A stretch of DNA of 31,096 nucleotides from a virus. Lineage: Duplodnaviria > Heunggongvirae > Uroviricota > Caudoviricetes. The DNA lies in IMG/VR virus record IMGVR_UViG_2529293246_000004, one strand, 5' to 3'. Shown in pieces: positions 1 through 31,096 of the stretch; the first letter of the stretch is position 1, and every line of letters starts with the position of its first letter. The notes below the pieces were generated by a model. That model searched no databases. It had not been told where the DNA came from and saw only the letters and a list, made by a program, of their open reading frames with translations. The position numbers and the translations under genes were made by a program.

Positions 1-219
1 TCACATCCACATAATTTGCTGCCCTGACGGCAACGGGTGCGGCCTTACGGCGTGGACTTCTCCCGGCTTCACGATGTATCGCTGTACCGACTCATAAGTG
101 ATGAACGTGGCACTGCAATTCACGTTCTGGCACTGATGATAACGCTCTTTTGTCGTGTCAGTGATATAGCGGCTTGTACGCGCATGTGCGGCATGCTGGC
201 ATAAAGGACAATGAAACAT
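1..219 (-). CDS. ogr: Late-gene transcriptional activator Ogr (zinc-finger)
   Basis: ORF 1..282 trimmed to the internal Met (MFHCPLCQHAAHARTSRY...), giving 72 aa as in P2 Ogr. Cys pairs CPLC and CQNVNC match the Ogr/Delta zinc finger. Lies immediately downstream of D as in P2. Confidence 0.88.
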   Translation of the reverse strand: MFHCPLCQHAAHARTSRYITDTTKERYHQCQNVNCSATFITYESVQRYIVKPGEVHAVRPHPLPSGQQIMWM

Positions 220-300
220 CGCGAGCACCTCTTCCGGTTTTGTTGATGATGCCATTTTAGTTAATTTACCCTTATAAAACAAATAGATAAATAAAACACA

Positions 301-1464
301 TCACTCTTCATCTTCTGTTTCATACTCCACATCAGAAAGCCTGACCTCAAGCTCTAAGGACGTCGTGAAGCCGCTATTATTCAGAAAATGTGTCACCTTA
401 GTGATTGTCCAGTCCTGCTCGTCTATGACGCGCTTAAAGCCTGACACTCTGACCGGCGTTTCCGTGTAAATATCAGCCCGACCAGTGGCAAGGCTGATGG
501 AGAACTCCGCAACGCCCCGTTGCAGTTTGTCCCACTTCGCCTGAGCGGCGCGCATTGCCTGCGCTTTCGTGGCATATACCGTGGTCAGGGCAAAAACGTT
601 GTCAGCCTCACCGGCCATGTATTCACCTTCGCGCGCTTCCGGTACTTTTGGCGCTTTCTTCTGCGTGACTGGTTTCGCTTTCGGGTGCTCCAGTGCGCGC
701 AGGTGTTTCTCTTTCTTTTTGCGTTTCAGTTTTACCTTCTGCTTTTGCGGCTTCGGGTCTTTGGTGTGTAGCCACTTTGCCGTTACGCCGGTGTAGGCTC
801 CACGGTCAGCAATCGCAAAATGGTGACGGTCGCCATCGCTGCGGGTGATGGTAATCTGCGGGATTTTTTTACCGCTGGCCGTCACCCCCTGCCCCGCTTT
901 GAGAAACAGCAGTTTTCCCATTTTTACCGACACCTCACCACCGTTGCGTTCTGCAAGACGGGTCAGGAATTTCGCATCGGACTCCTGCGACTGGTCGATG
1001 TGCGGGATTTTAATTCCGGCCAGTGACGGAGCGACACTGGCTTCCAGCTTGTTACGGGAGGCTATCGCCTCAACAATCGCACCGAGCGTGGTGTCATGCC
1101 AGGAGCCTTCACGGCGGGAATTGAGCGTCCCGCGAAAATCTGCACTCCGGGCGCGGATGGTAACCACATCCGGTGCGCCCCGGTGTTCAACCTCATCAAC
1201 GGTAAATTTCCCTTTGCATACCAGGGCAAAACCTTTCCAGCCGATATACACCGTCAGGACAGCGCCACGAATCGGTAGCCCGACCTGCCCGTCGGCGTCG
1301 TTCAGTTCAATATCAAGCTGGTCAGCCTCAAAGCCCCGGTTATCCGTCAGGGTCATGCTCATCAGACGGTCGCTGATATTGCCGGTAATATCCCTGCTGT
1401 CGAGCATCAGCATGTAATCCGGCGTCAGCGTACTGCCTGCATCAAATGTCAGCGCATCCAGCAT
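301..1464 (-). CDS. D: Tail protein D (tail fibre/baseplate-associated late protein)
   Basis: 387 aa, same length as P2 gpD. Sits between U and ogr. Lys-rich linker (KQKVKLKRKKKEKH) as in gpD-like proteins. Confidence 0.88.
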   Translation of the reverse strand: MLDALTFDAGSTLTPDYMLMLDSRDITGNISDRLMSMTLTDNRGFEADQLDIELNDADGQVGLPIRGAVLTVYIGWKGFALVCKGKFTVDEVEHRGAPDVVTIRARSADFRGTLNSRREGSWHDTTLGAIVEAIASRNKLEASVAPSLAGIKIPHIDQSQESDAKFLTRLAERNGGEVSVKMGKLLFLKAGQGVTASGKKIPQITITRSDGDRHHFAIADRGAYTGVTAKWLHTKDPKPQKQKVKLKRKKKEKHLRALEHPKAKPVTQKKAPKVPEAREGEYMAGEADNVFALTTVYATKAQAMRAAQAKWDKLQRGVAEFSISLATGRADIYTETPVRVSGFKRVIDEQDWTITKVTHFLNNSGFTTSLELEVRLSDVEYETEDEE

Positions 1465-1943
1465 TATCCCGCCTCCGTCATACCCGTGAATTTAGTCGCC
1501 ATACTGCCGGCCTTACCGATGAGCGATTCCGCCTGTTTACCGATATCGCCATAAAGCGCGGCCAGTGATTCATCAACGCGGGTGAGCGACAGCGTAAAAT
1601 CAATTTTTCGGGGTGTGCCGTCTGCAAAGAAAATACTCCCTGTTTCACTCACCCTGCTGATGACATACATGCCGTAAATCATGCCGGTGCCATCCAGCAA
1701 CGGCCACGCCCGACCTTCCTCTGCCATCAGCCTGAGCGTGGTCATCGTCAGCTTGCCGCCGGTCAGTTCGGGATAAAGCACACCGGCCAGCGTGATGTTT
1801 TCCTCACCCACACCGAGAAACTGAAAGGCATCCCGTTTGCCGATACGGGAATTTGACGGCCAGCGATAATCTGATTCACGCTGCATGGTCTGGTGTGGCA
1901 GCGTCTGGCGCATAAAAACAAACATACCTAACGCGAGCATCAT
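1464..1943 (-). CDS. U: Tail protein U
   Basis: 159 aa, equal to P2 gpU. Start overlaps the D stop. Position between T and D. Confidence 0.88.
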   Translation of the reverse strand: MMLALGMFVFMRQTLPHQTMQRESDYRWPSNSRIGKRDAFQFLGVGEENITLAGVLYPELTGGKLTMTTLRLMAEEGRAWPLLDGTGMIYGMYVISRVSETGSIFFADGTPRKIDFTLSLTRVDESLAALYGDIGKQAESLIGKAGSMATKFTGMTEAG

Positions 1944-1957
1944 TTTTCGTCACCTCC

Positions 1958-4405
1958 TTAACCGTCATGCATCATGCTGGCACGGGCGCGCGCACGTTTA
2001 TCCCGCTCGTATTTTTCGAGCGCATCCTGTAACTGGCGGTCAAGCTGTGTCCCCGGCGCAGTACCACCCGTCAGGCTGATGTGATATTCGTTTTTACTCT
2101 GGTCTACATAAGAGCGGCCAGCCGGTGCCGTGACCGGCTGATAAGCCTGATAGCCTGCATAAGAGCTGGTCGCCGGAATATAACCACCGCTGCCATACGT
2201 GGCGGCTTGAGTTCTGGCGGCGGTCTGGTCAAGTGTGTCTGACTCTTTGTTGATAACACCGAGTTTTTCCAGTACCCAGTCAATACCACTGCGCAGTTTG
2301 TTGAACGCATTAAGCGGCAGCATCAGCGCGTCAGCCAGTGCCTGCCCGAACATGACGCCCGTGTCACGGCAACGGTTCAGGGTGTCCTGTGTGGCTTTGA
2401 CCGGGGCAATCAGGTTTTTAAACCACTGCCACGCGGCCTGTAACTTTTCGCCCAGCCAGTCAAACACCGGCTTAAGTGGCGTGAACAGTTCCCCCACCGG
2501 CGCAAATGCCGCTTTCAGCCCTTCCACCACACCGCCAAAGAATGCGCTGACAGGCTCCCAGTATTTACGGATAAGCAACGCCCCGGCGACAATGGCGGCC
2601 ACCACGGCCACAACCGGCCAGCTAATCGCCCCGATGGCCGTCATAACAGCACTGCCAACCGTCGTGAAGATTGCCCCCATTGCGCCTGCTGCCGCGATGA
2701 TGGCATTGATGCCGGTGATAACCGGCCAGGCTACAAGACCAATTGCACCGATGATGCCAGTAAGCGCCAGCGCGCTACCGACAATGAGGCCGATGGTTGA
2801 CGCCAGTGATTTGTTTTTCTGGATCCAGCCGTCGAGTTTTAACACATACTTTGTGGCCGTCTGAGTGAGCTTACGCAGTGCGCCTTCCTGCTGGTCAAAC
2901 AGGTCAGTCCCCACCGCCTCATAAGCGGACTGAAACTCCTTAAAGTCACCGCCGAGGTTATCCTGCATGATTTTAACCAGCTCTTCCGTTTTACCGTCCG
3001 AGGCTTTCAGCGTGGCGGTCAGCTTATCCAGTTTTCCGCTTGCTGCCGCTGCCAGTAAAACGTTCGCTGATTTCAGGGCTTCCTCACCAAAAATGGTTTT
3101 AAGGTATTCCCCCTTCTGAGACGTTCCCAGCTTGTGTTTATCAAAGCTGGCCTGAATCTCTTTCAGAATGGTGAACAACGGACGCATATTTCCCTTTTTG
3201 TCCGAGGTTTTAACGCCAAGCTCTTTGAGTGCATCCCATGCTTTTCCAGTCGGTGCCTGTAATCGGGTGACAACGGCACTGCTACCCGTCCCCGCCATTG
3301 ACCCCCTGATGTTATTGTCATGCAGCACACCTGTCATGGCTGCTGCCTGCTCAAGACTTACACCTGCCGTCCTCGCAACCGGCCCGAGGTAAGTCAGTGC
3401 ATCACTGAGTCCCTGAAAATCAGCCGCCGACTTATTCATCGTTGCCGACAACACGTCGCCCACATGGCTGACATCATCATTTGACAGTTGAAAGGATGCC
3501 TTAGTCCCCAGCAACAGTTGCGCGTTTTCTTCCATCGACCGCTGATTCGCCAGTGCCATATTCAGCGTGACCGGCGTTGCCGCCTGAATAGCCGCAGCAT
3601 CTCCACCCGCTTTCGCAATGATAATCTGTGCACCGGCTGCATCATCTGCCGAGGCTGCGGTATTGTCGCCGAGCTGGCGCGCCTGCTTGCGGAGTGCGGT
3701 CATTTCGGCGGAGTCTTTTGCCACTCCTAGCACGGCCTGCAATTCTGAGTTTTTCTGCGCAAACTCATAACCGGGCATCAGCAGCTTAACTCCGGCCATC
3801 GTTCCCGCCGCCGCAATCCCCACACCGGCAGCGCCTACCGAGGCCATATTTCCGGCCAGTTCCTTTCCGGCCTGATAACGCTGTTTTACTGCGTTAAGTT
3901 TTGCCTGTTGCGCACTGACACGCGCCAGCGCGTCACGCTGACGGTTAAGCTGTGCGGTGGTTTCACTGATACGGTTTTTCAGTCCCTGCTCATCATGTGC
4001 AAGATTGCGGGTATTAATTCCCACAACGGCCAGTTCCCGCTGCTGGCGTTTAACGGAATCCGTCAGGCGGTTATATTTCGCCTGTAAGTCCTCCGCCGCA
4101 CGCTTCGCGGATTCCAGCACTTTCGCCTGAGCACGGGTCGGACGTTCAGTGTTTTTAAACTGTGTGGCAAGGGCTTCGGCCTCCTGCCGTGCCTTTTCAA
4201 GTGCATGACCAGTCACGGCGAGCTGTGCGCTGGTCTTGCGAAATCCCTCAATACGGGATGCGTGACCGTTCAGCTCGCGCAGTGATTTTTGTGTTTCCCG
4301 GATATCCCCCGACAGCGACTTGCTCGCTGTGCGGATGGATTTAAACGGGCGGGATGCCTGGTCAACAGCCCTGAGCAATACCTGTAATTTTACATTGTTA
4401 CTCAT
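1958..4405 (-). CDS. T: Tail tape measure protein
   Basis: 815 aa (P2 gpT length). Coiled-coil Ala/Gln-rich N-terminal half, a hydrophobic Gly/Ala-rich membrane-like stretch and a C-terminal domain, typical of tape measure proteins. Position after E/E'. Confidence 0.9.
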   Translation of the reverse strand: MSNNVKLQVLLRAVDQASRPFKSIRTASKSLSGDIRETQKSLRELNGHASRIEGFRKTSAQLAVTGHALEKARQEAEALATQFKNTERPTRAQAKVLESAKRAAEDLQAKYNRLTDSVKRQQRELAVVGINTRNLAHDEQGLKNRISETTAQLNRQRDALARVSAQQAKLNAVKQRYQAGKELAGNMASVGAAGVGIAAAGTMAGVKLLMPGYEFAQKNSELQAVLGVAKDSAEMTALRKQARQLGDNTAASADDAAGAQIIIAKAGGDAAAIQAATPVTLNMALANQRSMEENAQLLLGTKASFQLSNDDVSHVGDVLSATMNKSAADFQGLSDALTYLGPVARTAGVSLEQAAAMTGVLHDNNIRGSMAGTGSSAVVTRLQAPTGKAWDALKELGVKTSDKKGNMRPLFTILKEIQASFDKHKLGTSQKGEYLKTIFGEEALKSANVLLAAAASGKLDKLTATLKASDGKTEELVKIMQDNLGGDFKEFQSAYEAVGTDLFDQQEGALRKLTQTATKYVLKLDGWIQKNKSLASTIGLIVGSALALTGIIGAIGLVAWPVITGINAIIAAAGAMGAIFTTVGSAVMTAIGAISWPVVAVVAAIVAGALLIRKYWEPVSAFFGGVVEGLKAAFAPVGELFTPLKPVFDWLGEKLQAAWQWFKNLIAPVKATQDTLNRCRDTGVMFGQALADALMLPLNAFNKLRSGIDWVLEKLGVINKESDTLDQTAARTQAATYGSGGYIPATSSYAGYQAYQPVTAPAGRSYVDQSKNEYHISLTGGTAPGTQLDRQLQDALEKYERDKRARARASMMHDG

Positions 4406-4825
4406 TCGTGTTTCCGCTTCGCCGGAGCGCCTTTTCGCGCCATGTGATGAGTTCGGTCAGACTCATGGGATACAGTTCTGATGGCGGCCAGTGAAATATC
4501 ACTGCCACATCCGCCATCAGGTCATCGACCGACAGATTTTTCGGGAACGTCACTGCACCGAGTTCGGCGACAAAAAACCGACCACCTTACCGGCCAGCGC
4601 CACAAGGTCAGGCAGTTCCAGCGCGGCGACCTCCTGCTCGGTCAGCATCGGTGCCGTCATGCGCGGCAGCACTTTAATCAGTGCATCGACTTCGGAGTTT
4701 GCGACCGCAGCCAGACTGACACCGCGCAGCGTCCCGGCATTAGGTTTCATCAGCGTGACCTGTTCGATAACCTGTTCACCACGCTTGACCGGATTATCCA
4801 GGGTAATGACGTTTTCTTTGTTCAT
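4398..4825 (-). CDS. E': Tail assembly chaperone E+E' (programmed -1 frameshift product)
   Basis: On the minus strand the E frame reads GGT TTT TTG TCG (plus about 4571..4579). A -1 slip on T_TTT_TTG opens a frame that I translated by hand without stops to a TAA at plus about 4398..4400, just before the T start. This mirrors the P2 E/E' and lambda G/GT arrangement. Confidence 0.6.
4550..4825 (-). CDS. E: Tail assembly chaperone E
   Basis: 91 aa ORF (MNKENVITLDNPVKRGE...) with an ATG at 4825..4823. Same size and position as P2 gpE, between FII and T. Confidence 0.85.
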   Translation of the reverse strand: MNKENVITLDNPVKRGEQVIEQVTLMKPNAGTLRGVSLAAVANSEVDALIKVLPRMTAPMLTEQEVAALELPDLVALAGKVVGFLSPNSVQ

Positions 4826-4881
4826 GGTTTTCTCACTTCTGAATCGGGGTTAACCGGTCAGCCAGGCTGACCGGATGAAAA

Positions 4882-5400
4882 TCACAGGCCGATATTGCGG
4901 CGGTGTTGCTCCAGCCGGTCGACGCCGTTCACCTTCTCAATCATGTTGATGGTGTCGATTTCGACCAGCTCCTTACCGTCCATCGTCAGCCGGAAATAGG
5001 TGCAGACCACGGAGATTTTCGACTCGGTGTCTTCTCCTTGTTTACCCTCGCCGGTGTCGATTTCTTTCTGACGGCCACGCATGACCACCTCGACGGCCAC
5101 CGTTTCGCCGGTATCGTCGCGCTGGTAAGAACCGGCAAAACGAATCGGCACAGCATCCACACCGGTTGCGGCGTAAAGCTCCCAGATAACCGAATCCGGG
5201 AAGCCCCCGAGCGACCACTCCATTGACAGCGCATCGTCATCAAGGCCGAGGTCTACCGGTGCGCTGCCGTTCATTCCCGCACCGCGATAGTTTTCGAGCT
5301 TACGGGTCAGTTTTGGCAGCGTGATGGACTTTGCAACGCCCTGATAGCTGTAGCCGTTCAGAAAGACGTTCATTAACTTGAGTTTGCGCGGCATTGCCAT
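4882..5400 (-). CDS. FII: Tail tube protein FII
   Basis: 172 aa (P2 gpFII length), downstream of FI and upstream of E. Confidence 0.9.
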   Translation of the reverse strand: MAMPRKLKLMNVFLNGYSYQGVAKSITLPKLTRKLENYRGAGMNGSAPVDLGLDDDALSMEWSLGGFPDSVIWELYAATGVDAVPIRFAGSYQRDDTGETVAVEVVMRGRQKEIDTGEGKQGEDTESKISVVCTYFRLTMDGKELVEIDTINMIEKVNGVDRLEQHRRNIGL

Positions 5401-5412
5401 CGGTCAGGCTCC

Positions 5413-6603
5413 TTAATTGCTGTTAACCGAAGTGACCAGATTTGCCAGGTATTTATCGGTAATACGCTGGCGCAGGGTCAGGTTTTCGAGAGGAGGCACC
5501 GGTGTATAGTCGTAGTCGATATACAGTTTTCCGGCCTTGAGGGTTTCCGCATCGTTGGATTCTTCGCTGAACCAGCAGGTCGCATCCACGATATAGCCGT
5601 TTGTTTTCAGCTCACGGAATTTGGCATTGATGCCGTCAACGATGTCGCGAATCAGCGTTGCGGTGATGGGCTTGTCCACCGCCCACATGTGCGCCTCAGC
5701 CATCGTGTCGGCCAGCACCTGCGCGGTGCGGGTGTAGTTTTCAAAGAGGAACAGCGGGTCATCAGAGCAGGTACGGTTACCCCAGAAGCGGAAACCGTCA
5801 CGGCGAATCAGCGTTGTGACGCCTGACTCATTCAGCAGGTCAGCATCGGTGCCGGACTCCTGCAAATCCCAGAATACAGATGCGCTGATGCCGGTAACAC
5901 CGTTCACCCCGACGTTGGACAGCGTTTTATGCCAGCCCTGCTCCTGGTCGATTCTGGCACGCAGACCCAGCGCACGGGCGGTGGCATACGCGGTGGCGGT
6001 GGTACTGGCAACCGTATCCCATGCGAGGAAATCCGGCCAGATGACCATCAGCTCACGCTGGCTGAAATTCTGACGGTAGGCTTTCACCTCGGAAATGGTC
6101 TTACAGCCCCATGCGCTGATATATCCGAAAGCGCGCAGCTTCTGACAGACTGATGCCAGTGCAACAGCCACCTCTTTGGTATCCAGCCCCGGCACACCAA
6201 GAATACGCGGTTTAACACCGGTTACCGACTCCGCCGCCAGCAGGGCTTTCAGTCCGGTGTACTGACCGTTTTCGTCAGTGGTGCCGATGATATTGGAAAC
6301 GGTCTGCGCGAGTTTCGTTTCTTCGTCGTCGCCGGTTCCGTCTTCCACGCGCACGACAACGGTGACCGGTTTTGACTGGTCAGCGATGGCCTGCAACGAT
6401 GCCGCCAGCGTGCCTTTTTTACCGGCCTTTGCAATCGCGCTCTGCACATTGGTGATCAGCACCGGTTTATTGACGGGGAAGGTTTCCGCATCCGCATCGC
6501 TGGCCGTGCAGACCATGCCAACAATGGCGGTGGATACGGTGGAAATGACGCGGGTGCCGTCGTTAATCTCCAGCACCTGCACGCCGTGATGATAGTCACT
6601 CAT
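5413..6603 (-). CDS. FI: Contractile tail sheath protein FI
   Basis: 396 aa (P2 gpFI length). First gene of the FI-FII-E-T-U-D late operon. Confidence 0.9.
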   Translation of the reverse strand: MSDYHHGVQVLEINDGTRVISTVSTAIVGMVCTASDADAETFPVNKPVLITNVQSAIAKAGKKGTLAASLQAIADQSKPVTVVVRVEDGTGDDEETKLAQTVSNIIGTTDENGQYTGLKALLAAESVTGVKPRILGVPGLDTKEVAVALASVCQKLRAFGYISAWGCKTISEVKAYRQNFSQRELMVIWPDFLAWDTVASTTATAYATARALGLRARIDQEQGWHKTLSNVGVNGVTGISASVFWDLQESGTDADLLNESGVTTLIRRDGFRFWGNRTCSDDPLFLFENYTRTAQVLADTMAEAHMWAVDKPITATLIRDIVDGINAKFRELKTNGYIVDATCWFSEESNDAETLKAGKLYIDYDYTPVPPLENLTLRQRITDKYLANLVTSVNSN

Positions 6604-6700
6604 CCGTTTAACTCCGTGGTTAATGGGTGCAACTATTTTCTGTTGTGCAGAGCATGAGACGCTATTTGACCTGGCTGGTCAGTGGATGAAACAACAGATA
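6604..6700 (-). promoter_or_regulatory. Putative Ogr-dependent late promoter region (PF) upstream of FI
   Basis: Placed by operon logic: non-coding stretch immediately 5' of FI on the minus strand. I could not find a clean TGT-N12-ACA activator site by eye. Confidence 0.3.
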
Positions 6701-6707
6701 AAGAAAA

Positions 6708-6726
6708 GGCGGGCAATTCGCCCGCC
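6708..6726 (-). terminator. GC-rich hairpin followed by a T-tract on the minus strand
   Basis: GGCGGGC-aattc-GCCCGCC perfect 7-bp stem. On the minus strand it is followed by TTTTCTTT. Located between the cargo gene and the FI promoter region. Confidence 0.45.
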
Positions 6727-6862
6727 TGTCCTGATTTGTACTCACTCATTTTCCGACTGACAATTTACATAGCCAAAACACTATCATTTCCCTGACGTTA
6801 AGTTGTATCTTTGATAGGATTAAAAAATGTATAGATAGCTTATACTATTGAGGGAACAAAAA

Positions 6863-7672
6863 ATGACGCAAATTAGTGAACGATGGAAGCACAACGGCAT
6901 TACTAAAGGTTATTGCAATATTTGTGGAAAATATGACTTCCTCACAAAAGATCATGTTCCTCCAAAGTGTGCCATAACCTTAGGTCCTGTTCTTCAGAAA
7001 ACAGTTAGCGAATTTTTTGGTGTTCAGGAACCAGTTAAACCATTAAATGCTAAAAACGGCTCTTATTTCAAAACCATTTGCAGCCACTGTAACAATAAGG
7101 TGTTAGGTGGACTCGACGTTGCAATTGAAAATGTAGCAAAGTCCTTTAAAGAACAGTTGAGTCAATATATGAATGGTATGAATGTATATCCATTCATTAG
7201 AATACCTTTTGATAGCATATCTTTCACTAAGGCTATGATTGGACACGTGCTATCGGCAACTTCAGTTGAAGATTGTAAAAAAGAACCCGTAGATAGCCCC
7301 TTCTATACACCTTTAAAAGATTATGTTTTGGGTAAGAATCCAAGTTTTGAGGAGACTCATGATATTTACTACTGGTTTTACCCACACAGAATGCACATAT
7401 CAGCTCAAAGTGTAGCATTTATGAACGAAGGACATGTAGCATTTATTTGTGCTTTACATTTTTTTCCTATCGGTTTTATTATCACAATTAAAAATGAAGG
7501 AATATACCCTGCACACTCAACAAAATTAGAACTTAAAGATAAATTCCTTACATTTAACATGACATCTGTAAATTATGAGTATACGACATTTCCATTTGTA
7601 AATCTTAAGGGAAACCAAATGTATGCTATAAGCAACGGCCATACATGTGTGAGTTATCCAATAATTAAGTGA
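6863..7672 (+). CDS. Hypothetical cargo protein with N-terminal HNH-like zinc-finger nuclease motif (Z/fun-position moron)
   Basis: ORF 6848..7672 begins at a TTG; the first ATG is at 6863 with GAGGGAA about 8 nt upstream. N-terminus carries C-x2-C (CNIC), then DHVPP, then C-x2-C-N-x-K (CSHCNNK), the HNH/His-Me finger pattern. GC content is visibly low compared with the flanking tail genes. Opposite strand to the neighbouring structural genes. Confidence 0.6.
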   Translation: MTQISERWKHNGITKGYCNICGKYDFLTKDHVPPKCAITLGPVLQKTVSEFFGVQEPVKPLNAKNGSYFKTICSHCNNKVLGGLDVAIENVAKSFKEQLSQYMNGMNVYPFIRIPFDSISFTKAMIGHVLSATSVEDCKKEPVDSPFYTPLKDYVLGKNPSFEETHDIYYWFYPHRMHISAQSVAFMNEGHVAFICALHFFPIGFIITIKNEGIYPAHSTKLELKDKFLTFNMTSVNYEYTTFPFVNLKGNQMYAISNGHTCVSYPIIK

Positions 7673-8327: not shown

Positions 8328-8330
8328 AAA

Positions 8331-22679: not shown

Positions 22680-23621
22680 ATGCAAGGTGAAGTTGACGAA
22701 CAGCAACCAAATGAGATTATTTCGGAGTTTGGATACTATCCAGTAGAAGTTAACATTGAGACTGAACAATTTTCTTTGCGTACTTTACCCGGTCTTATTG
22801 AGAAAGTGGAACGTATTAACAATGATAAAAACGTTGTTAATGGTTGGATATACCCTGGGAATCGAGAGGTATATAACCTTAATGGTGACTCATGCACAAT
22901 GCCTTATAGTTACCGAGTATTCGGCATGCCCAAAACGCACACACTAAAATTAAAAAACACATCCTCGTTAGAAACTCTCAACTTTGTTGTGTGGTGCCTC
23001 TCTTTTTTCAAGGGTATAAGATTGACAACCACTGACGCTGGTTTTCTTGATGCAACCACTATCAAGCCCACTAAGTTAACCGATTTTATTCTCGTTGGAT
23101 GCTCTGAAAAAGAAGTCATAGAACTGGCTCTTAATTATATAACTAACAAACAAAAGGATGCGCACTCCCCCAAAAGAATTGCGGCAGTGGTGCATGCGCT
23201 ATTCTTATCTCAAAACCCACAATACCTTCCTTTTGAAAAATTCCAGTACCTTTACATGGCACTTGATGGTTGCTTTGCTTTATCGTGGGCTGAGCATGAC
23301 AAGGCTCCTGATAAAACCCAGCCAAATCATTCCAAGCGATTAAAGTGGATGTGCAGAATTTATGGGTTATCAATCCCCACATGGGTATCAGGCAAAAAAA
23401 ACATTTCTGGCATCCGCAATGATAATTTTCATGAGGCTATTTTTTTTGGCCAACCACTTGGTTTTTCCAGTGTTAACAACAATCAATATGGTAACGATAT
23501 ATTACTGCAAATGCAGAAACTCGTTTGTCGCCTATTAGCGGCAATACTGTCGGTTAATGATTGCGGTTATCTCAAATCTTCGGTCAACTCACGAGAGTAC
23601 CATTCATTAAAATTAACTTAA
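22680..23621 (+). CDS. Hypothetical cargo protein, 313 aa, at the position P2 uses for old
   Basis: ATG at 22680 with GGAGA 7 nt upstream. AT-rich. I recognise no conserved motif and see no Walker A P-loop. Opposite strand to the early operon, as P2 old is. Confidence 0.6.
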   Translation: MQGEVDEQQPNEIISEFGYYPVEVNIETEQFSLRTLPGLIEKVERINNDKNVVNGWIYPGNREVYNLNGDSCTMPYSYRVFGMPKTHTLKLKNTSSLETLNFVVWCLSFFKGIRLTTTDAGFLDATTIKPTKLTDFILVGCSEKEVIELALNYITNKQKDAHSPKRIAAVVHALFLSQNPQYLPFEKFQYLYMALDGCFALSWAEHDKAPDKTQPNHSKRLKWMCRIYGLSIPTWVSGKKNISGIRNDNFHEAIFFGQPLGFSSVNNNQYGNDILLQMQKLVCRLLAAILSVNDCGYLKSSVNSREYHSLKLT

Positions 23622-23652
23622 TGCTAACGCCTCACTTCGTTCGTTGTTCAAC

Positions 23653-23690
23653 CCCGCCAGCACTGAAAACATGTTTCATTGCTGGCGGGG
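23653..23690 (+). terminator. Long hairpin downstream of the 313-aa gene
   Basis: CCCCGCCAGC ... GCTGGCGGGG 10-bp stem around an 18-nt loop that is itself palindromic, followed by TTCTCT. Begins about 30 nt after the stop codon. Confidence 0.45.
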
Positions 23691-23941
23691 TTCTCTATCG
23701 TCTGCGTGGTGGCGGCGCAAGGCTGGACTGACCGATATAGTTAAGCTGTTCGTAATTATCCCTGACTATTTCGGCACACCCGACTAGCTCATCGGGCGTC
23801 AGATTTTCGTTGACCATAATCTGCTGTAAACGGTGAACAATGGCCATCAACCTGACACTTTTGGTGTTATATGTGGTATCTCACATGAGATTACTGACCA
23901 AGGTGCATCTTGGTTGACTCATTTCATATCCATCCACACCA

Positions 23942-24622
23942 CTACATCTTTATTGCATATTTATTAAAAGACGCCCAGTTCAACAAAAAAACATTATTCA
24001 TATACCATTCAATATAATTTTTATTTTTAGATTGACTGTCAAGTAGCACACAAACATCAACCTGTTTATCAATCAATTTTGCAATATAAACCACAAACTC
24101 AACACTCGAATATCTCTTTGTGCCTAGCAAATATAATATTTCATCTGACAAATAATTAGACTCATGTGAAAAGACATTATCATTTAACAAAATCAATCCG
24201 CCAATCGAGTCATTTAAATCCAAAACATCCTTTGTTGCATTTATTTGCTTATTAGCTTCTTTAACTACCTTTGTTTTAATATTTTCATAAGCAAAGTTCA
24301 TTATATCATTTCTAAATCGCTTTGAGTCTGGGTGTCTTTTTATCAACTCTTCTAAATGAATAGCACCATGCCAGTTTTTTGCAAGCCAACTATCAGTTTT
24401 AACCAACTCATTCAGTTTATCATTGACATTCTTGACCCTGTCAGAAAAAAGACTTTTCATCTCCAAAATTATCTTTTTATTATCAATAAGATAATCTGCC
24501 ATCTTGCGATTCTGACCATCCTTCATCCGGAACTTATGATGAATATCATCAATAGAAATCCCTTTTTCATGCTCAACAATGAATCTCTTAACATTGTTTT
24601 CTAATTCGCTGTATTGTTTCAT
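23942..24622 (-). CDS. Hypothetical cargo protein, 226 aa, at the position P2 uses for tin
   Basis: ATG at 24622 with GGGGGA upstream. Markedly AT-rich, Lys/Asn-rich protein with no motif I recognise. Directly downstream of a small gene on the same strand. Confidence 0.6.
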   Translation of the reverse strand: MKQYSELENNVKRFIVEHEKGISIDDIHHKFRMKDGQNRKMADYLIDNKKIILEMKSLFSDRVKNVNDKLNELVKTDSWLAKNWHGAIHLEELIKRHPDSKRFRNDIMNFAYENIKTKVVKEANKQINATKDVLDLNDSIGGLILLNDNVFSHESNYLSDEILYLLGTKRYSSVEFVVYIAKLIDKQVDVCVLLDSQSKNKNYIEWYMNNVFLLNWASFNKYAIKM

Positions 24623-24649
24623 TCTTTCCCCCGTGAATTTTATTGTGAT

Positions 24650-24841
24650 TCACTTACGTGGACGACACAGCATACCACTTTTACTCTCTGCTATTTCCAG
24701 TAAATCAATGGAGAATGACTCCTCGTGCAAAACTCCTTCTTTATCATGCCAAATACATTTAGCATGAGTCTCAGTAGAGTCAGATACAGTCATTTTAAAT
24801 CCACCGCTTTTCAAACAAACAACATCTGCAGGCTTTAACAT
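24650..24841 (-). CDS. Small DUF2158/YodC-like protein, 63 aa
   Basis: ORF 24650..24925 trimmed to the ATG at 24841, which has GGAGA 5-6 nt upstream. Sequence MLKPADVVCLKSGGFKMTVSDSTETHAKCIWHDKEGVLHEESF resembles the GD-VV-LKSGGP-MTV...C-W core of YodC-like small proteins. First gene of a two-gene minus-strand unit. Confidence 0.55.
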   Translation of the reverse strand: MLKPADVVCLKSGGFKMTVSDSTETHAKCIWHDKEGVLHEESFSIDLLEIAESKSGMLCRPRK

Positions 24842-24968
24842 TTTTGTCTCCAACATTTTTAAGTAATGCATTATAACATAATGATATTGACGTAGATTTA
24901 ATGCATGCAACCATATAAAAAACAATCAATTACAGTCAAAACTGCTTAATACTGTATAGATGAGATCA

Positions 24969-27248
24969 TTACTCAAATTGATGCCAGAATCCCGGCCACT
25001 CATCAGCGACCGGATACGTGAATTTTTTCCCGTCATAATTTACGGTCGCGCCACGCGCCAGCGCCTCAAGCTCCCATCGCTGCGGCCTGATACCGTTCTG
25101 AGCAAGGTCAACGCGGATACGGGTGATTTGCAATCGTTCAGACCGGCTCAGTCTGGCCGATGGTGCAATTTCATGCGGTTTTAACGGGCTTCCGTTTCTT
25201 TGTTGACGATTTGGCGTTCTCAGCCCGTGTTTTAATGCGCCCCTGAGCGCCCTCACGACATCCGGGTCATTCCATTCGATAACACCGTCATCAGCCAGAT
25301 TAAGCACGGCTGCGGCGTGTTCAGAAGGCGTGGGAGCCGGTAACGAAGTATTACCGCCGGTGAGCTTTCCACAGTTATTGACAGGACTCCGAGGCGCGGC
25401 GATGCCGCTTTTTAAAGTCAAAGGCTCAACGACCGGCACTTTCGGAACAATGCGCCAGTCCGTCGTTCTGGTGATATGAATATGACGCGCGCCGAGATGC
25501 GGCGCGTAAATGCCGACCACTCTCTCGACTTCTTCCTCGTACTCGTTAACGTCATCCGACGGGCTACGGGCAACCCTGACAGTCTGGCAATCGCGCGGGA
25601 CATTTGCCCCACCCTGCGCGCTGATATACAGCGCAAAATCACCACTGTCTGCGGCGGCGCGTGCAGCCTCGACGCGCTCGTCAAACTCATCAGCAATGCT
25701 GACGCCGCGAGGCAATTTGCGTAGTTCACGGTAAGCCCCCATTGTCGGCAGGCCAACCGTTTTAAATTGCGGAATGCGCCACGTTGACGCCCATGCGGTA
25801 ACAGCCGCGGCAGTATCTTTCAGCGGTCTGCCGGTATCGTTATCGAGCTGCCCATCCAGTGCATAGCCGTCGATATTTTTTGAGATGTATTTCGCGATAT
25901 ACCCCGCAGCACCGCCCCGGTTAAGGTGTTTTTCCTGAAAACGGTTTCGCGCGGCTCCTCTTTCGTCGCCATCCTCTTTGAGCGCATAGCGACGCATGAT
26001 TTCGATAATCTGGTTACGCTGGCGTGGATGACAAAAAAGCATCATATGCCAGTGCGGCGTTCCGTCGTGGTGTGGCTCGACGACACGCAAACCGTAGACC
26101 TGTAAATCATTATCCTTGAATGCCGTGCGCATCAGGCTCCAGATACGGCAGAGATAACGCTGCGCATCCTTTGGATTAAATGCCTCATCGTTCCAGCCGT
26201 GATTAAGCTGAACGGTTTTACTTTCGCCTTTTCCGACCTGACGTGTCGGGTGATACTTTGACGGCGCGGTCAGCGTGATAAACATCCCCAAATCACCCTC
26301 TGCGGCGGCGTAACGCTCAATACCGGCAATGGTGTTCATCAGCTCCATCCGGCGAATTTCTGGATTAGAAATACTGCCCATCACCTTACTGATAAGGTCG
26401 ATGCGCTCGCCGGTTTCCCTGTTTTCAAGGTCACACGATTTAAGAAATTCCAGATTTGCCTGGCGGCGCGCACGCACATCACGAATGGCATGTTTACTGG
26501 CATAAGGAGAACGGTCTTTATTGACCTCCCCGACAGCAATCAGTAACGCCTCATGCCAGCGCATACGCTGGCCTTTAAGCTGACTAATCCACCACTCATC
26601 GTTAAACAGACGGGCAATGGCAGAATATGCCTGCCTCGTGGTCATCTGTCCTTTACTGTATTTTTTCCAGTAGAGCGGGGAAATATTGAAAGCACGTGCA
26701 GCGCCAGCAACATGACCATACAGGTGAGCCTGCGCCTCATCCGTAAACAGCGATTCTTTTTCACCATGCGCATCAACCCATGCATCGCAGAGTTCCTCAT
26801 ACATCATGAAAAGCTGCGATGAGATACGGGCGGCAAACTTTTTCAGCTCCTTGTCATTCATTCCAGGCAGGCGCGCATAGTGGTCACGCTCTGCCAGAAA
26901 CAGCAACGACGCGTCGGTGTTCATTTCATGGCGCTGATTCACGCGCTCAATGCGCGGCCATAAACGACGCTGAAAAGTGGATGTGAGGAAATAAAACCCG
27001 TGCACCGGGCTTTTATTGCGCCGGATGTAGTCATAGCGTGAAGTAAACAGCGAACGCAAAAAGTAAGGCAGGCGGTTAATCGTGGATAAAACACCTTGCA
27101 CCTGACGCATCTCGTCACGTGTAAGGGGTCTTTCGCGCCCGACGGCCTCGCGTGGCGCGTTCCATGCATAAGCACCGGTAAACGTCTTACCGGTGCCTGC
27201 GGCAAATGCTGACGGAGGGACAAAACGCCCGGAGGCTTTAACGTCCAT
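24969..27248 (-). CDS. A: Replication initiation protein A (rolling-circle nicking endonuclease)
   Basis: ORF 24969..27290 (773 aa from a TTG) trimmed to the first ATG at 27248, giving 759 aa, close to P2 gpA (761 aa). Last gene of the early operon. Confidence 0.88.
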   Translation of the reverse strand: MDVKASGRFVPPSAFAAGTGKTFTGAYAWNAPREAVGRERPLTRDEMRQVQGVLSTINRLPYFLRSLFTSRYDYIRRNKSPVHGFYFLTSTFQRRLWPRIERVNQRHEMNTDASLLFLAERDHYARLPGMNDKELKKFAARISSQLFMMYEELCDAWVDAHGEKESLFTDEAQAHLYGHVAGAARAFNISPLYWKKYSKGQMTTRQAYSAIARLFNDEWWISQLKGQRMRWHEALLIAVGEVNKDRSPYASKHAIRDVRARRQANLEFLKSCDLENRETGERIDLISKVMGSISNPEIRRMELMNTIAGIERYAAAEGDLGMFITLTAPSKYHPTRQVGKGESKTVQLNHGWNDEAFNPKDAQRYLCRIWSLMRTAFKDNDLQVYGLRVVEPHHDGTPHWHMMLFCHPRQRNQIIEIMRRYALKEDGDERGAARNRFQEKHLNRGGAAGYIAKYISKNIDGYALDGQLDNDTGRPLKDTAAAVTAWASTWRIPQFKTVGLPTMGAYRELRKLPRGVSIADEFDERVEAARAAADSGDFALYISAQGGANVPRDCQTVRVARSPSDDVNEYEEEVERVVGIYAPHLGARHIHITRTTDWRIVPKVPVVEPLTLKSGIAAPRSPVNNCGKLTGGNTSLPAPTPSEHAAAVLNLADDGVIEWNDPDVVRALRGALKHGLRTPNRQQRNGSPLKPHEIAPSARLSRSERLQITRIRVDLAQNGIRPQRWELEALARGATVNYDGKKFTYPVADEWPGFWHQFE

Positions 27249-27513
27249 GTGAGCCAAAAGCCTCTGAACAACGCTTGCTGAGTTGCTCAACCTGCGCGTT
27301 TAAATCAGCAAAAGATTTTGCGCTTCCGGTCAGAATATCGTGATGCATCAGGCCGGAAACGAGCTGGCTTAATTTCGGGTAATAACCAACCACCGCCAGC
27401 CATTCCTGACCGGCGTTTTTACCGCTTTCCGCTCTCTTTTTCTCGTGGAGAATAAACTGAAAGCTGTCACTGGTAACGACATAACGTTCGCCAATTTCAA
27501 TACGAATACTCAT
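27238..27513 (-). CDS. Hypothetical early-operon protein, 91 aa
   Basis: ATG at 27513 with GGAGA upstream. Stop overlaps the A start; start overlaps the stop of the upstream gene (ATGA). Position of the small orfs preceding A in P2. Confidence 0.6.
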   Translation of the reverse strand: MSIRIEIGERYVVTSDSFQFILHEKKRAESGKNAGQEWLAVVGYYPKLSQLVSGLMHHDILTGSAKSFADLNAQVEQLSKRCSEAFGSHGR

Positions 27514-27734
27514 GCCGTTCTCCGGTAATGTTTGTTTTTTGCTTCAAAGACTGACTGACAGGAAACACAACGCGTGGCTGACGGATAAGCCGCACGACGG
27601 GCAGCAGGTATTGGCGCGTCACACTCTTCGCAAACCAGCGCAGAAGCACCGCAATGTTTTACCCTTGCCGCGTTAATCTGACGCTCCAGTAATTCAGCCT
27701 GTTGTTCCTGAATGAAATCTACGTTGTCCGGCAT
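27510..27734 (-). CDS. TraR/DksA-family C4 zinc-finger protein, 74 aa
   Basis: C-x2-C-x17-C-x2-C (CEEC ... CVSC) is the DksA/TraR C4 finger. P2-like early operons carry such a protein. Confidence 0.7.
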   Translation of the reverse strand: MPDNVDFIQEQQAELLERQINAARVKHCGASALVCEECDAPIPAARRAAYPSATRCVSCQSVFEAKNKHYRRTA

Positions 27735-28024
27735 TACCAGTTCCTTTTGTCGTTCAGTTTCTTAAATTCATCAGCGCAATAGCTGACGATTTCTGTCGTT
27801 AATTTTGTCAGTTCATCCACGGAGGAAATTTGCTTGTGGAATACAGCGCGTTTAACAAGTAAATTGACCACATCAGACAGGAGATTTAATTTATCCGCAT
27901 AAATGGCTATAGTTGATTCCACCATATCCCCAGTGTTTTTATCGCGTTTAATATCAGCTAGCGACAAATCACCATTTTTCATGACTGAAATCTTCAGCCA
28001 GTTATTAAGCAATATATTTTTCAT
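27734..28024 (-). CDS. Hypothetical protein, 96 aa, AT-rich moron within the early operon
   Basis: ATG at 28024 overlapping the upstream stop (ATGA). Stop overlaps the next start (TAATG). Visibly lower GC than B and A on either side. Confidence 0.5.
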   Translation of the reverse strand: MKNILLNNWLKISVMKNGDLSLADIKRDKNTGDMVESTIAIYADKLNLLSDVVNLLVKRAVFHKQISSVDELTKLTTEIVSYCADEFKKLNDKRNW

Positions 28025-28266
28025 TCGCTATATGCCCTCTCCGCAGAATCAATCATTTCCCGGCCATTATCGGTAATACAGAAACCTTCTCTTGATTTGG
28101 TCACAAGCCCCCATTTCCCCATTGCTATAAATGCTTTTTCCACACGACTAGGACAGGAGCGGAAGACATCGCTTGAAGGATGTAGTGGAGTCTTGTTATC
28201 TAATTTTTTAAGTAATGAAAGTTGATAATCTGTTAAGCGTTTCCTGAACCATTTTGTATTTGTCAT
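28021..28266 (-). CDS. Hypothetical early-operon protein, 81 aa
   Basis: ORF 28021..28272 trimmed to the ATG at 28266 (81 aa). Translationally coupled to the downstream gene. Confidence 0.55.
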   Translation of the reverse strand: MTNTKWFRKRLTDYQLSLLKKLDNKTPLHPSSDVFRSCPSRVEKAFIAMGKWGLVTKSREGFCITDNGREMIDSAERAYSE

Positions 28267-28280
28267 CTCCAACTTCCCTG

Positions 28281-28493
28281 TTATTTATTGAGTCCTAGAT
28301 TATGGAATTTGGCAGACTCCTGACTGAGCAACTCGACTATCTCCACGCGGGATAACTCCGCCTTTGTGATGTGGCGAATCATGGCATCAAGATGAGACGA
28401 AAAGCGCGTTGCTGCATCGGCCTGTGCTTCGGTTCTGGCCTGTTGCAGCATTAATGCGTATTTACCGCACTGATTTTCAGAAACTGTATGCAT
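28281..28493 (-). CDS. Hypothetical early-operon protein, 70 aa
   Basis: ATG at 28493. Lies between B and the 81-aa orf. Confidence 0.55.
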
Positions 28494-28556
28494 GACTTTC
28501 TCCAGGCAAAAAGAAGCCCCGCACGATTAAGTGCGTTAAAAACTTTGGTTAATTAC

Positions 28557-29057
28557 TTAATGCAGATATTGCTCTGGTTTTACCGACGTCAGAATTGTCG
28601 GTGCATATTCAAACAGACTGAATAATTCACGTAATGCACGGAATAAAGCATCACGCCAGTAACATGACTCTTCATTAATTCGCCAGTATGGCTGATTAAA
28701 TTCTTTTTCTGTCAGTCGTGCGTGCATAAATAAAGTACGGCGCTGACTGACAGTTAAAAAGCTAATATATGCATACTCACTTGCACCGACCTTACGGCGT
28801 TTTGAGAATGCCCCACGCAATTCATCAATTGCACAAACCAGCCGTTCACGTTCGACGTCGTTCATTTCTTCAAAACGCATCGTTGCATGACGCTGTTTTA
28901 ACTGTGCATGGAAGCAAACCGTTAGCCGTTCGCGCTCCATCATCTGATTATAATAATCACATGTCTCCTGCCAGCGAGGGACGGCAAGATGCTTACCAAT
29001 TATCCGGCGCATAGTTGCTGGTTGTTTTTCAACGAGATTGAGCGTCATCACTGTCAT
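28557..29057 (-). CDS. B: Replication protein B (helicase loader-like)
   Basis: ORF 28557..29063 trimmed to the second ATG (MTVMTLNL...), which has GGAGGG 7 nt upstream, giving 166 aa as in P2 gpB. Confidence 0.85.
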   Translation of the reverse strand: MTVMTLNLVEKQPATMRRIIGKHLAVPRWQETCDYYNQMMERERLTVCFHAQLKQRHATMRFEEMNDVERERLVCAIDELRGAFSKRRKVGASEYAYISFLTVSQRRTLFMHARLTEKEFNQPYWRINEESCYWRDALFRALRELFSLFEYAPTILTSVKPEQYLH

Positions 29058-29290
29058 TTCCATACCCTCCGGCTTTTCAGAAAGGTCAGAGCCTTTTTTA
29101 ACGGACTCTGTTTTTTGGTGCGGATAATGATTCCCTTACGCCCCTTACCGTGGGTAATGGTGAAGTCAATCGCCCTAGGGCTTTCGTTACGCAATAACTG
29201 AGCAATACAACGAGGCTCGTTCATCCTTTCCACCTTAAGCCGCACGGCCATGTCTTGATTTGCTGTAACTAATGCGATTTTTCCAGTCAT
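29054..29290 (-). CDS. Small early protein, 78 aa (orf78-like)
   Basis: ORF 29054..29314 trimmed to the ATG at 29290, giving 78 aa. Lies between cox and B as P2 orf78 does. Confidence 0.65.
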   Translation of the reverse strand: MTGKIALVTANQDMAVRLKVERMNEPRCIAQLLRNESPRAIDFTITHGKGRKGIIIRTKKQSPLKKALTFLKSRRVWK

Positions 29291-29591
29291 GCCATTCTGT
29301 CGGAGCTTCATCAACTAGTTGGGCTGCGTACTTGTCCCACTCACGGCGATTAATCCATAACTCAGCATGACCGCCCGGCTTTAATGGGTCTGTCATATAA
29401 AAGGCTGGTAACTTGCCTGCTTTCGCCATTTCAGCAACAGCACGAGGCGTCTTACCGATGTAAAGAGCAAATCCCTCTTTCGAGAGCAAATCCGACGGTG
29501 CGGCTGCAAGTTTGATGTCACATTTTTTACTTTTTGTGAGATCAGATACTTTTTCTCCAACATCGTTATTCATTTCTGATCCAATACTCAT
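29235..29591 (-). CDS. cox: Cox-like excisionase/early repressor (HTH)
   Basis: C-terminal two-thirds (...ALYIGKTPRAVAEMAKAGKLPAFYMTDP...ELWINRREWD) resembles P2 Cox as I recall it (...KLIGKSTGAVRRMIDKGKLPVIDMTDP...). First gene of the minus-strand early operon, divergent from C. Start chosen at the ATG at 29591 (GAGGA upstream). The track ORF begins at a TTG at 29621. Longer than P2 Cox, so the start is uncertain. Confidence 0.65.
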   Translation of the reverse strand: MSIGSEMNNDVGEKVSDLTKSKKCDIKLAAAPSDLLSKEGFALYIGKTPRAVAEMAKAGKLPAFYMTDPLKPGGHAELWINRREWDKYAAQLVDEAPTEWHDWKNRISYSKSRHGRAA

Positions 29592-29695
29592 TTTGATATC
29601 CTCAACTTTGGTGCCATTCAACCAGAGCTATTTGAAGCCGCTCTGCGTTGTTCTGGTGTGTCGCATACAACATAAATTACGAGATACGACAATTC
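29592..29695. promoter_or_regulatory. Lysis-lysogeny switch region (divergent Pe and Pc promoters and operators)
   Basis: About 100-bp gap between divergent cox (minus) and C (plus), the P2 switch architecture. Specific operator half-sites were not resolved by eye. Confidence 0.45.
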
Positions 29696-30007
29696 ATGTC
29701 AAATACACAAATCACATCTCAAGCAGAGAAACTCGCACTTATTCGGGAGTCAGAAAGAATGACAAGGAAGCAAGTTGCTGAATTAACTGGAATTAACTAC
29801 AACACCTATGCTGGATATGAGCAGGGAAAAGTAAAGATGTCTTTTGACGCAGGCATGAAATTTTTCAAGCCTGAAAGATTTCGCAAGTACCGTGACTGGT
29901 TCATGTTTGATGAAACTGATCCCGCTGGCGGACAAATAGCCCCGGCGCTCGCGCACATTGGGCAAGACTCAACAACCTTGCACCACTCAGACCAAAAGAC
30001 TGGCTGA
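29696..30007 (+). CDS. C: Immunity repressor C
   Basis: ORF 29648..30007 trimmed to the ATG at 29696 (MSNTQITSQAEKLALIRESERMTRKQVAELTGINYNTYAGYEQGK...), 103 aa. HTH motif. C-terminus ...GQIAPALAHIGQDSTTLHHSDQKTG resembles the P2 C repressor. Upstream of int on the same strand. Confidence 0.8.
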   Translation: MSNTQITSQAEKLALIRESERMTRKQVAELTGINYNTYAGYEQGKVKMSFDAGMKFFKPERFRKYRDWFMFDETDPAGGQIAPALAHIGQDSTTLHHSDQKTG

Positions 30008-30100
30008 CGATTTATTCAGCATATGTATGCAGTAAATGTACGAAAGAAAATTGCATTAATTTTCAAGTAGTAGAAGTAAACAGCGTCATCGGAGGGCTTT

Positions 30101-31096
30101 ATGTCTATTAAAAAGCTCGATGATGGTCGTTATGAAGTGGACGTCAGACCGCAGGGTGCAGATGGAAAACGTATCAGGCGGAAATTTAAAACTAAAGGTG
30201 AAGCTCAAGCATTCGAACGTCATGTACTGGTTAACTACCACAACAAAGAGTGGCTGGAGAAGCCAGCCGACCGCCGAACTCTTACAGAGTTGTTAGGCAG
30301 ATGGTGGATATATCATGGAAAATCACATGAGCGTGGAGATATTGAACGGGGGCGTTTGACGACAATAATCGCCAAATTTGCAGAAATGGGAGTGTCCAGA
30401 GCTGACCAGCTAACAAAGAAAACGATAACTGATTATCGCGTTGTAATGATGAACGATGGTCTAAAACCAGCCAGCGTAAATCGGCATCTGGCAATAATGA
30501 GCGGGATGTTCACCAAGTTAATTGACGCCGGTGAATACCATTCTCACAACCCGTTCCGTGAGGTTAAGCGATTACGTGAAGCTGTTACAGAAATGGCTTT
30601 TTTGTCCAGTGAAGAGATTACACGGCTGTTATCCATGCTCGATGGTGATGAATTAAATGCGACTCTGGTCTGCCTTTCTACTGGTGGACGCTGGAGTGAA
30701 GTGTCTAATTTAAAAGCTGAACACATCATTAACCAGATGGTTACGTTTATGAAAACTAAAAACGGAAAGCGCAGGACAATTCCCGTTTCGCAGGACCTGA
30801 TTAAACGGATCAAGACCAAAAATTCAGGCAGGCTTTTTAATGCCAGTTACTACAAAGTGCGCAACGCTCTCAGGGAAGTAAAACCCGATTTACCTGACGG
30901 ACAGGCAGTGCATGTTTTGAGGCATACATTTGCCACACATTTTATAATGAATGGAGGTAACATAATCACATTGCAGCGCATCCTGGGTCATTCTAACATT
31001 CAGCAAACTATGACCTACGCACACTTTGCACCGGATTTCTTACAAGATGCAGTGACTCTTAACCCGGTGTCAGGAATGTCCATAATGCGTCCATAA
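30101..31096 (+). CDS. int: Tyrosine integrase (P2-type)
   Basis: 331 aa with GGAGGG RBS. Tyrosine-recombinase boxes: VLRHTFATH and GHSNIQQTMTYAH with the catalytic Tyr. Stop codon is at the window edge, so attL is expected just beyond it. Confidence 0.9.
   Translation: MSIKKLDDGRYEVDVRPQGADGKRIRRKFKTKGEAQAFERHVLVNYHNKEWLEKPADRRTLTELLGRWWIYHGKSHERGDIERGRLTTIIAKFAEMGVSRADQLTKKTITDYRVVMMNDGLKPASVNRHLAIMSGMFTKLIDAGEYHSHNPFREVKRLREAVTEMAFLSSEEITRLLSMLDGDELNATLVCLSTGGRWSEVSNLKAEHIINQMVTFMKTKNGKRRTIPVSQDLIKRIKTKNSGRLFNASYYKVRNALREVKPDLPDGQAVHVLRHTFATHFIMNGGNIITLQRILGHSNIQQTMTYAHFAPDFLQDAVTLNPVSGMSIMRP

Follow-up and report, generated by a model that had tools for sequence, protein, structure and literature searches.

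Phages of the genus Peduovirus, for which P2 (NC_001895) served as the reference in this study, are recognised by their late-gene order, by a cohesive-end site (cos) adjoining the portal gene Q, by the replication proteins gpA and gpB, by the late-gene activator Ogr and a C/Cox switch, and by a phage attachment site (attP) positioned between int and ogr. All of these features were found for the element analysed here, which was obtained as the 31,096-nucleotide virus record IMGVR_UViG_2529293246_000004 (this whole stretch of DNA is referred to as the window), and we conclude that the window is very probably an intact temperate Peduovirus (P2-like phage) that is integrated in the chromosome of Escherichia coli and clipped at the stop codons of ogr and int. 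With P2 the element shares its gene order over the stretches Q to ogr and int to A, the 19-nt cos sequence, an Ogr protein of 100% identity and, on the ogr side of attP, the sequence of the ogr terminator, the P arm and the sites for integration host factor (IHF). It differs in that 24,055 of its 31,096 nt (77%) can be aligned to P2, at 95.8% identity, corresponding to an overall similarity of approximately 74%; furthermore, its 13-bp attachment core lies in pflA, as opposed to the 27-bp core of P2 at locI, G and the C-terminus of H appear to have been swapped for other sequence, and other cargo takes the place of orf30, fun(Z), orf91, tin and old, none of which is present. The usual species threshold is a nucleotide identity of at least 95% over the whole genome, and judged by this alignment the element would fall outside the species Peduovirus P2.

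A megablast comparison of the window to 50,697 phage records identified 30 that cover at least 80% of positions 1-25000, all of them Peduovirus, the best covering 90% of this interval at 94.8% identity. These are the values obtained for vB_EcoM-720R8 (ON470606), which carries the same set of four accessory genes adjoining cos (encoding proteins of 313, 51 and 226 amino acids (aa) and a DUF2158 protein, all annotated as hypothetical), but whose Cox is of the P2 length of 91 aa. Phage pro147 (NC_028896) possesses the gene for a 269-aa protein in the fun(Z) slot (99.3% nucleotide identity) together with an integrase region of the pflA type, yet encodes a reverse transcriptase at the cos-proximal slot, and neither phage pairs both cargo sets with the immunity and integration module of the window. 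The same integrase and attP are present in vB_YpM_115 (OR545056), vB_YpM_46, D8, 11W, 12W, S164, P24E6b and P24A7b, in which one uninterrupted segment of 97-98% identity comprises the end of int, 90 bp, the core GTCAGTTATTGGT, 110 bp and ogr, together with a small open reading frame (ORF) that spans the core; these phages differ in their hotspot cargo, and none covers at least 80% of the right-hand 8.9 kb of the window. The old/tin slot beside cos in P2-like phages and, among their tail genes, the fun(Z) and orf30 slots have been described as accessory or defence hotspots (PMC9122126, Rousset et al. 2022; PMC13586616, NAR 2026), and the cargo of the window is located exactly in the old/tin and fun(Z) slots. 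The exact mosaic is absent from the phage records searched; each of its modules is present in public records, and identical copies of it occur in draft assemblies.

Integrated state and attachment sites

Comparison with P2 by tblastn matched 37 of its 42 annotated proteins in the window, on the reverse strand and in P2 order; no counterparts were detected for orf30, fun(Z), orf91, tin and old. Full-length amino acid identities of 92-100% were obtained for Q, P, O, N, M, L, X, Y, K, lysA, lysB, lysC, R, S, V, W, J, I, FI, FII, E, T, U, D and ogr, and of 91-100% for A, B, orf78, orf80, orf82 and orf83, with lower values for G (75%) and orf81 (73%), while H was aligned over its N-terminal 251 residues only (95%). 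The divergent module comprises int (53%), C (48%) and cox (35%). Product lengths differ from those of P2 for H (749 versus 669 aa), A (759 versus 761), orf80 (70 versus 74), orf81 (96 versus 100), cox (118 versus 91), C (103 versus 99) and int (331 versus 337), and equal the P2 lengths for all remaining genes. The statement of an earlier, first-pass annotation that gene order and protein lengths follow P2 in reverse complement from ogr to int is therefore borne out, apart from the differences in length just listed.

The cos site, at which terminase cuts to generate the ends of virion DNA, was placed by the same annotation inside the window, and this is correct: positions 22423-22441 (minus strand) are the exact reverse complement of the 19-nt P2 cosL/cosR sequence (GGCGAGGCGGGGAAAGCAC). 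The match occurs once when both strands of the window are considered, against a chance expectation of 2.3e-7 for an exact 19-mer, and it is situated 170 bp beyond the stop codon of Q, adjoining the portal gene in the P2-type arrangement.

As the window is devoid of flanking DNA, identical copies were sought by exact-protein look-ups. The integrase proved too common for this approach (14,860 blocks) and led to relatives with other cargo only, whereas rarer proteins (the 269-aa cargo protein, gpA and H) led to identical copies. Assembly GCA_013055765.1 (locus L030) is 100.000% identical over window positions 1-17672, to the left of which it carries pflB and focA; GCA_038402575.1 (L033), ERZ654358 (L034) and GCA_000264215.1 (L035) are 100.000% identical over positions 14969-31096, with pflA, ycaK and ycaN following on the right. 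On contig NODE_8 of the ENA assembly ERZ654358, where loci L050 and L034 are joined on one contig, positions 53984-85079 correspond to the entire window with one substitution, and the element is bordered by 1,670 bp of host DNA on its left and 6,152 bp on its right. All identical copies found are chromosomal and have pflB and pflA as flanks. Similarly, in E. coli GD33, the closest relative among complete genomes (about 98% identity), the element is located between pflB and pflA. The first-pass annotation had offered two readings of an internal cos combined with ogr and int at the edges, an integrated prophage or a circular form opened at attP, and the former is upheld by identical copies that are flanked by focA-pflB and pflA-ycaK.

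In these copies, homology to the empty site of K-12 ends on both sides at the same 13-bp repeat, GTCAGTTATTGGT, which corresponds to nucleotides 3-15 of pflA and of which the K-12 empty site contains a single copy. Between the left core and window base 1 lie 110 bp, and between base 31096 and the right core 90 bp; both stretches are phage DNA and represent the arms of attP. When the element is excised in silico such that one core is retained, the product is collinear with K-12 pflB-pflA over 1,701 bp at 99.35% identity with a gap-free junction. The first-pass annotation had expected the core to be immediately outside the window and to be a direct repeat of 20-30 bp; a direct repeat was indeed found, but it is 13 bp in length (extending imperfectly to 17 of 19 positions) and is separated from the window by the two arms, beyond which host DNA begins within the anticipated distance of about 200 bp. 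The complete phage genome is accordingly 31,309 bp, and the window is short by 213 bp, which include the core and most of attP, so that its description as a whole P2-like prophage holds for the gene set and fails for the attachment DNA. To the left of such a prophage the sequence would be expected to read CACCGCAAT-GTCAGTTATTGGT-110 bp-window, and to its right window-90 bp-GTCAGTTATTGGT-CGCATTCAC.

The reconstructed attP (end of int, 90 bp, core, 110 bp, end of ogr) is contiguous in at least 15 phage records at 100% coverage and 97-98% identity, and the core with both arms is found base for base in Yersinia phage vB_YpM_115 and Escherichia phage D8. The 110-bp arm hardly differs from the P2 sequence (NC_001895) in which the ogr terminator, the P arm for Int and the IHF sites are annotated, and divergence from P2 starts exactly at the core. 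Within the window, a motif scan identified two TATGGAC repeats over the last codons of int (31078-31095, minus strand), which occupy the same position relative to the int stop codon as the annotated P' arm of P2; these putative P' arm-type sites, at which Int would be expected to bind, are probably the sole part of attP that the window contains.

Base 1 of the window is the first base of the ogr stop codon (reverse strand), and the int stop codon ends at base 31096; such edges mark a prophage call that was cut at its outermost coding sequence (CDS) boundaries. As a CDS-trimmed call, the window misses its attachment sites by 110 and 90 bp, which should be borne in mind when such windows are used in attachment-site studies.

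The alternative that the window derives from a free, circular or concatemeric phage genome, or from an assembly artefact, opened between ogr and int, draws on the internal cos, which a circular form cut at attP would be expected to show as well, and on the many records of phages from this family that were deposited in permuted form. However, a circle or a virion record would hold the 213-bp int-attP-ogr segment, as the sequenced phages do, whereas the window lacks this segment and ends exactly at two stop codons. The first-pass annotation had reasoned that phage DNA continuing beyond ogr or int would point to such an artefact; phage DNA does continue there in the literal sense, but it consists of the attP arms and lends the artefact no support. 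Given that the identical copies are all chromosomal and flanked by pflB and pflA, the circular artefact is rejected and this origin as a whole is regarded as highly improbable. It is still harder to sustain that the 13-bp repeat is coincidental and that the true boundaries lie elsewhere, for instance at a longer repeat further out: 13 bp is indeed short next to the 27-bp core of P2, but a shared 13-mer between two 200-bp flanks has a chance expectation of 5e-4, homology to K-12 breaks exactly at the repeat on both sides, the excised sequence is gap-free relative to K-12, and the predicted attP is contiguous in sequenced phages. A defective, cryptic remnant comparable to ogrK of K-12, fixed and incompetent as a phage, would be in keeping with the frequency of P2-like remnants in E. 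coli and with the deleted relatives L021 and L031 that occupy the same or similar loci. Against this, all 38 placed gene models are full length, with a Met start, a terminal stop and no internal stop, and include every essential P2 gene; the identical copies retain cos, both cores and both arms in intact form; and a genome of 31,309 bp is within the 29-35 kb range of sequenced P2-like phages. This possibility is consequently deemed unlikely, although less so than the preceding two.

Several observations nevertheless weigh against reading the window as an intact, pflA-integrated prophage. The integrated state holds for the copies identical to the window, and that of the window's own source is inferred from them; among these copies, the match is 100% in several assemblies that each cover about half of the window, and it extends over the full length, with one mismatch, on a single contig. 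The exact mosaic is absent from complete RefSeq genomes of E. coli, the best of which reaches 86% coverage at 96% identity. The assignment of the att sites rests on the present analysis, since no publication was found in the searchable literature that describes pflA as the bacterial attachment site (attB) of P2-like phages. Additionally, the C/Cox module is only 35-48% identical to that of P2, and P2-like regulation is therefore not to be assumed.

If the window is indeed such an integrated, intact prophage, Int would recombine the 13-bp core GTCAGTTATTGGT of attP, between int and ogr, with the identical nucleotides 3-15 of pflA, thereby opening the phage circle between ogr and int and leaving cos internal. 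Upon derepression through the C/Cox switch, Cox and Int would excise the element, gpA and gpB would replicate the excised phage DNA and Ogr would activate the four late operons, after which terminase (gpM/gpP) would cut cos to yield a 31,309-bp genome with 19-nt cohesive ends. The use of sites by Int, IHF and Cox, as well as inducibility, is presumed in this scheme by analogy with P2 biology.

Consequences for the host gene pflA

In a lysogen, the native promoter, ribosome-binding site and ATG of pflA are left on the ogr side, approximately 31 kb from the rest of the gene. The 90-bp stretch 3' of int supplies a new ATG and 20 codons (MSNLTNCNTTENTATAGATK), which continue in frame through the core to codon 2 of pflA. 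In every lysogen inspected, a 265-aa radical-SAM PflA is called 32 bp after int, compared to the 246-aa PflA of K-12. In the free phage, as represented by the reconstructed attP, the corresponding ORF is 27 codons long, spans the core and ends just past it.

A scan of the sense strand from int to pflA revealed no terminator-like sites, and a single promoter-like site was noted in the 3' end of int, a count no higher than expected by chance. The fused pflA would presumably be transcribed by read-through of the C-int transcript or from this weak promoter-like site.

Of the 5,426 complete E. coli genomes searched, 405 contain the int-attR-pflA junction, APEC O78 and strain M10 among them. Should the proposed effect of the core-spanning ORF be true, a gene of anaerobic metabolism would be placed under prophage transcription in approximately 7% of sequenced E. 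coli. Both the attB core within pflA and the in-frame substitution of the gene's 5' end are defined here and were not encountered in the searchable literature; at the same time, the discovery value of the element as such is small, as P2-like prophages are well understood and complete E. coli genomes with this integrase/att type number in the hundreds.

Cargo genes in the low-GC hotspots

The guanine-plus-cytosine (GC) content of the window falls from 55-60% in its core to 30-42% at positions 6601-7800 and 22801-25200, and these two regions correspond to the fun(Z) slot and the cos-proximal old/tin slot. By analogy with P2, the genes that they contain may be lysogenic-conversion genes, probably with anti-phage roles.

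The fun(Z) slot is occupied by the gene for the 269-aa protein (6863-7672, plus strand; GC 35-38%), which belongs to phrog_21495 (annotated as of unknown function) and displays an N-terminal CxxC...DHVPP...CxxCN motif that is HNH-like. Among 41 homologues, residues C21, D30, H31, C73, C76, N77, D85 and H128 are invariant, and the elements C18/C21, D30-H31 and C73-x2-C76-N77 are invariant or nearly so across the family. Searches of Pfam, PADLOC and NCBIfam returned no match for the protein, although two to three of its homologues produced weak matches to HNH_5 or Endonuclease_7 (E-values of 0.002-0.17). Its structure was predicted with confidence (predicted template modelling score (pTM) of 0.88); the whole-chain model had no match among solved folds, and a profile search of the PDB returned chance matches only. 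The labels 'chaperonin' and 'metal-binding protein' that source records attach to this protein were discarded, as neither is supported by family searches and the former is an annotation artefact. The sole mismatch between the window and ERZ654358 NODE_8, a T to C change at position 6913, is located inside this gene.

The 313-aa protein is encoded at 22680-23621 (plus strand), in the position and orientation of old in P2, and is predicted to consist of a beta-rich N-terminal domain and a HEPN-like C-terminal domain. Its motif R246-N-D-N-F-H251-E agrees with the HEPN pattern Rx4-6H, and R246, N247, H251 and E252 are invariant across 40 homologues, down to 45% identity, in a family that preserves R246-N-D-x-F-H251-E and extends, with solo homologues, to Aeromonas, Pseudomonas and Acinetobacter at approximately 48% identity. 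In the structural model (pTM 0.83), the N-terminal half is rich in beta structure and the C-terminal half is helical. On the basis of the Rx4H motif and the helical C-terminal half of the model, the protein is termed HEPN-like and is not assigned to a named family; neither the protein nor its 40 homologues matched Pfam even at E-values of up to 10, while one homologue carries the source label 'Apea-like HEPN'. The candidate identity with the 'Putative HEPN' tested by Rousset et al. (pFR103) was rejected, as the two differ in sequence.

Downstream of A, three further ORFs with a GC content of 30-42% are encoded on the minus strand between positions 23695 and 24841, specifying a 51-aa protein (23695-23850; phrog_11386), a 226-aa protein (23942-24622; phrog_20483) and a 63-aa DUF2158 protein (24650-24841; phrog_3261; Pfam E-value of 4.7e-8), and each of these phrogs is annotated as of unknown function. 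The source label 'meiotically up-regulated 80 protein' of the 51-aa product is an annotation artefact without support from family searches. The family of the 226-aa protein is narrow (Enterobacterales) and is also found on its own on Pantoea IncFII-type plasmids; profile searches returned neither a PDB relative nor a relative with a described function, and it may be speculated that its invariant D43...E54-x-K56 residues constitute a PD-(D/E)xK nuclease motif. The DUF2158 protein recurs in many P2 hotspot arrangements, and Rousset et al. 2022 (PMC9122126) include the four-gene arrangement of the window, uncharacterised, in their Table S5A under the entry 'hypothetical + hypothetical + hypothetical + DUF2158'.

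That the 313-aa and 226-aa proteins form an obligate two-gene system was considered and rejected, as distant homologues of each are found alone in unrelated contexts, from which it follows that the two are independent modules. Members of the 313-, 269- and 226-aa families are likewise encountered singly elsewhere, on other mobile elements or chromosomes. No match was obtained in PADLOC-DB v2 for the 269-, 313-, 226-, 63- and 51-aa proteins or for the 40 homologues of the 313-aa protein, and, apart from DUF2158, Pfam and NCBIfam likewise left the cargo proteins unassigned. The three hotspot genes without functional annotation (313, 269 and 226 aa) represent reasonable candidates for defence screening. 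The combined proposition that they encode new anti-phage effectors and that the ORF across the attP core is an evolved device for rebuilding pflA is a tentative one, to which we give somewhat less than even credence.

The orf30 slot between S and V (13007-13072) is empty, measuring 66 bp. In the relatives L025 and L031 this slot holds a two-gene cassette with matches to PycTM and weak Pfam matches to Guanylate_cyc/AGS_C, which suggests a Pycsar-type system in those relatives.

Arrangement of the remaining genes

The left end of the window is formed by ogr (1-219, minus strand), an intact ORF that encodes a 72-aa zinc-finger late-gene activator with 100% amino acid identity to that of P2. The program-made ORF list overextends this gene to positions 1-282, with a TTG start and 93 aa, the true gene being 1-219. 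It is followed by the tail genes of the F operon (301-6603, minus strand), namely D (301-1464), U (1464-1943), T (1958-4405), E (4550-4825), FII (4882-5400) and FI (5413-6603), which are intact and display 92-99% amino acid identity to P2 over their full length; an E+E' frameshift product would be expected to reach about position 4398.

Beyond the fun(Z) slot, the V operon (7800-13006, minus strand) encodes the baseplate and tail fibre and comprises G (7800-8327), H (8331-10580), I (10591-11121), J (11114-12022), W (12027-12374) and V (12371-13006), of which I, J, W and V are 97-100% identical to P2. Pfam identifies Phage_tail_fib and Phage_fiber_2 domains in H, and the divergent C-terminus of this protein, together with the 75% identity of G, suggests that the receptor-binding module has been swapped. 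The H gene is 80 codons longer than that of P2 and contains internal repeats of approximately 90% identity with an offset of 132 nt at positions 9573-10040 (Phage_fiber_2 repeats).

The O operon (13073-19273, minus strand) contains S, R, lysC, lysB, lysA, K, Y, X, L, M, N and O, intact ORFs with 95-100% amino acid identity to P2 and roles in tail completion, lysis, head formation and as the small terminase. The large terminase P (19447-21219) and the portal Q (21219-22253) are encoded on the plus strand and are 99.8% and 99.7% identical to their P2 counterparts, respectively. A scan of the window with Rfam (at gathering thresholds) and for tRNA genes returned no match.

At the right-hand end, int (30101-31096, plus strand) encodes a 331-aa tyrosine integrase with the Pfam domains Int_N and Phage_integrase and 53% identity to Int of P2. 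It is preceded by the immunity switch (29235-30007), in which cox and C are divergently transcribed: cox (29235-29591, minus strand) specifies a 118-aa protein with a Phage_Cox match in Pfam (1.9e-29) and 35% identity to P2 Cox, and C (29696-30007, plus strand) specifies a 103-aa repressor that is 48% identical to P2 C and matches helix-turn-helix families below the Pfam cut-off.

The early operon, which is responsible for replication (24969-29224, minus strand), includes A (24969-27248; 97% identical to P2), B (28557-29057; 97%) and orf78 (29054-29224; 100%), and between A and B the small ORFs orf83, orf82, orf81 and orf80, with identities to P2 of 98%, 100%, 73% and 91%, respectively. Between the orf80 and orf81 homologues it contains an extra 81-aa ORF (28021-28266, minus strand; phrog_11056, annotated as of unknown function), which is not found in P2 and is also present in the relatives L007, L010, L011 and L017.

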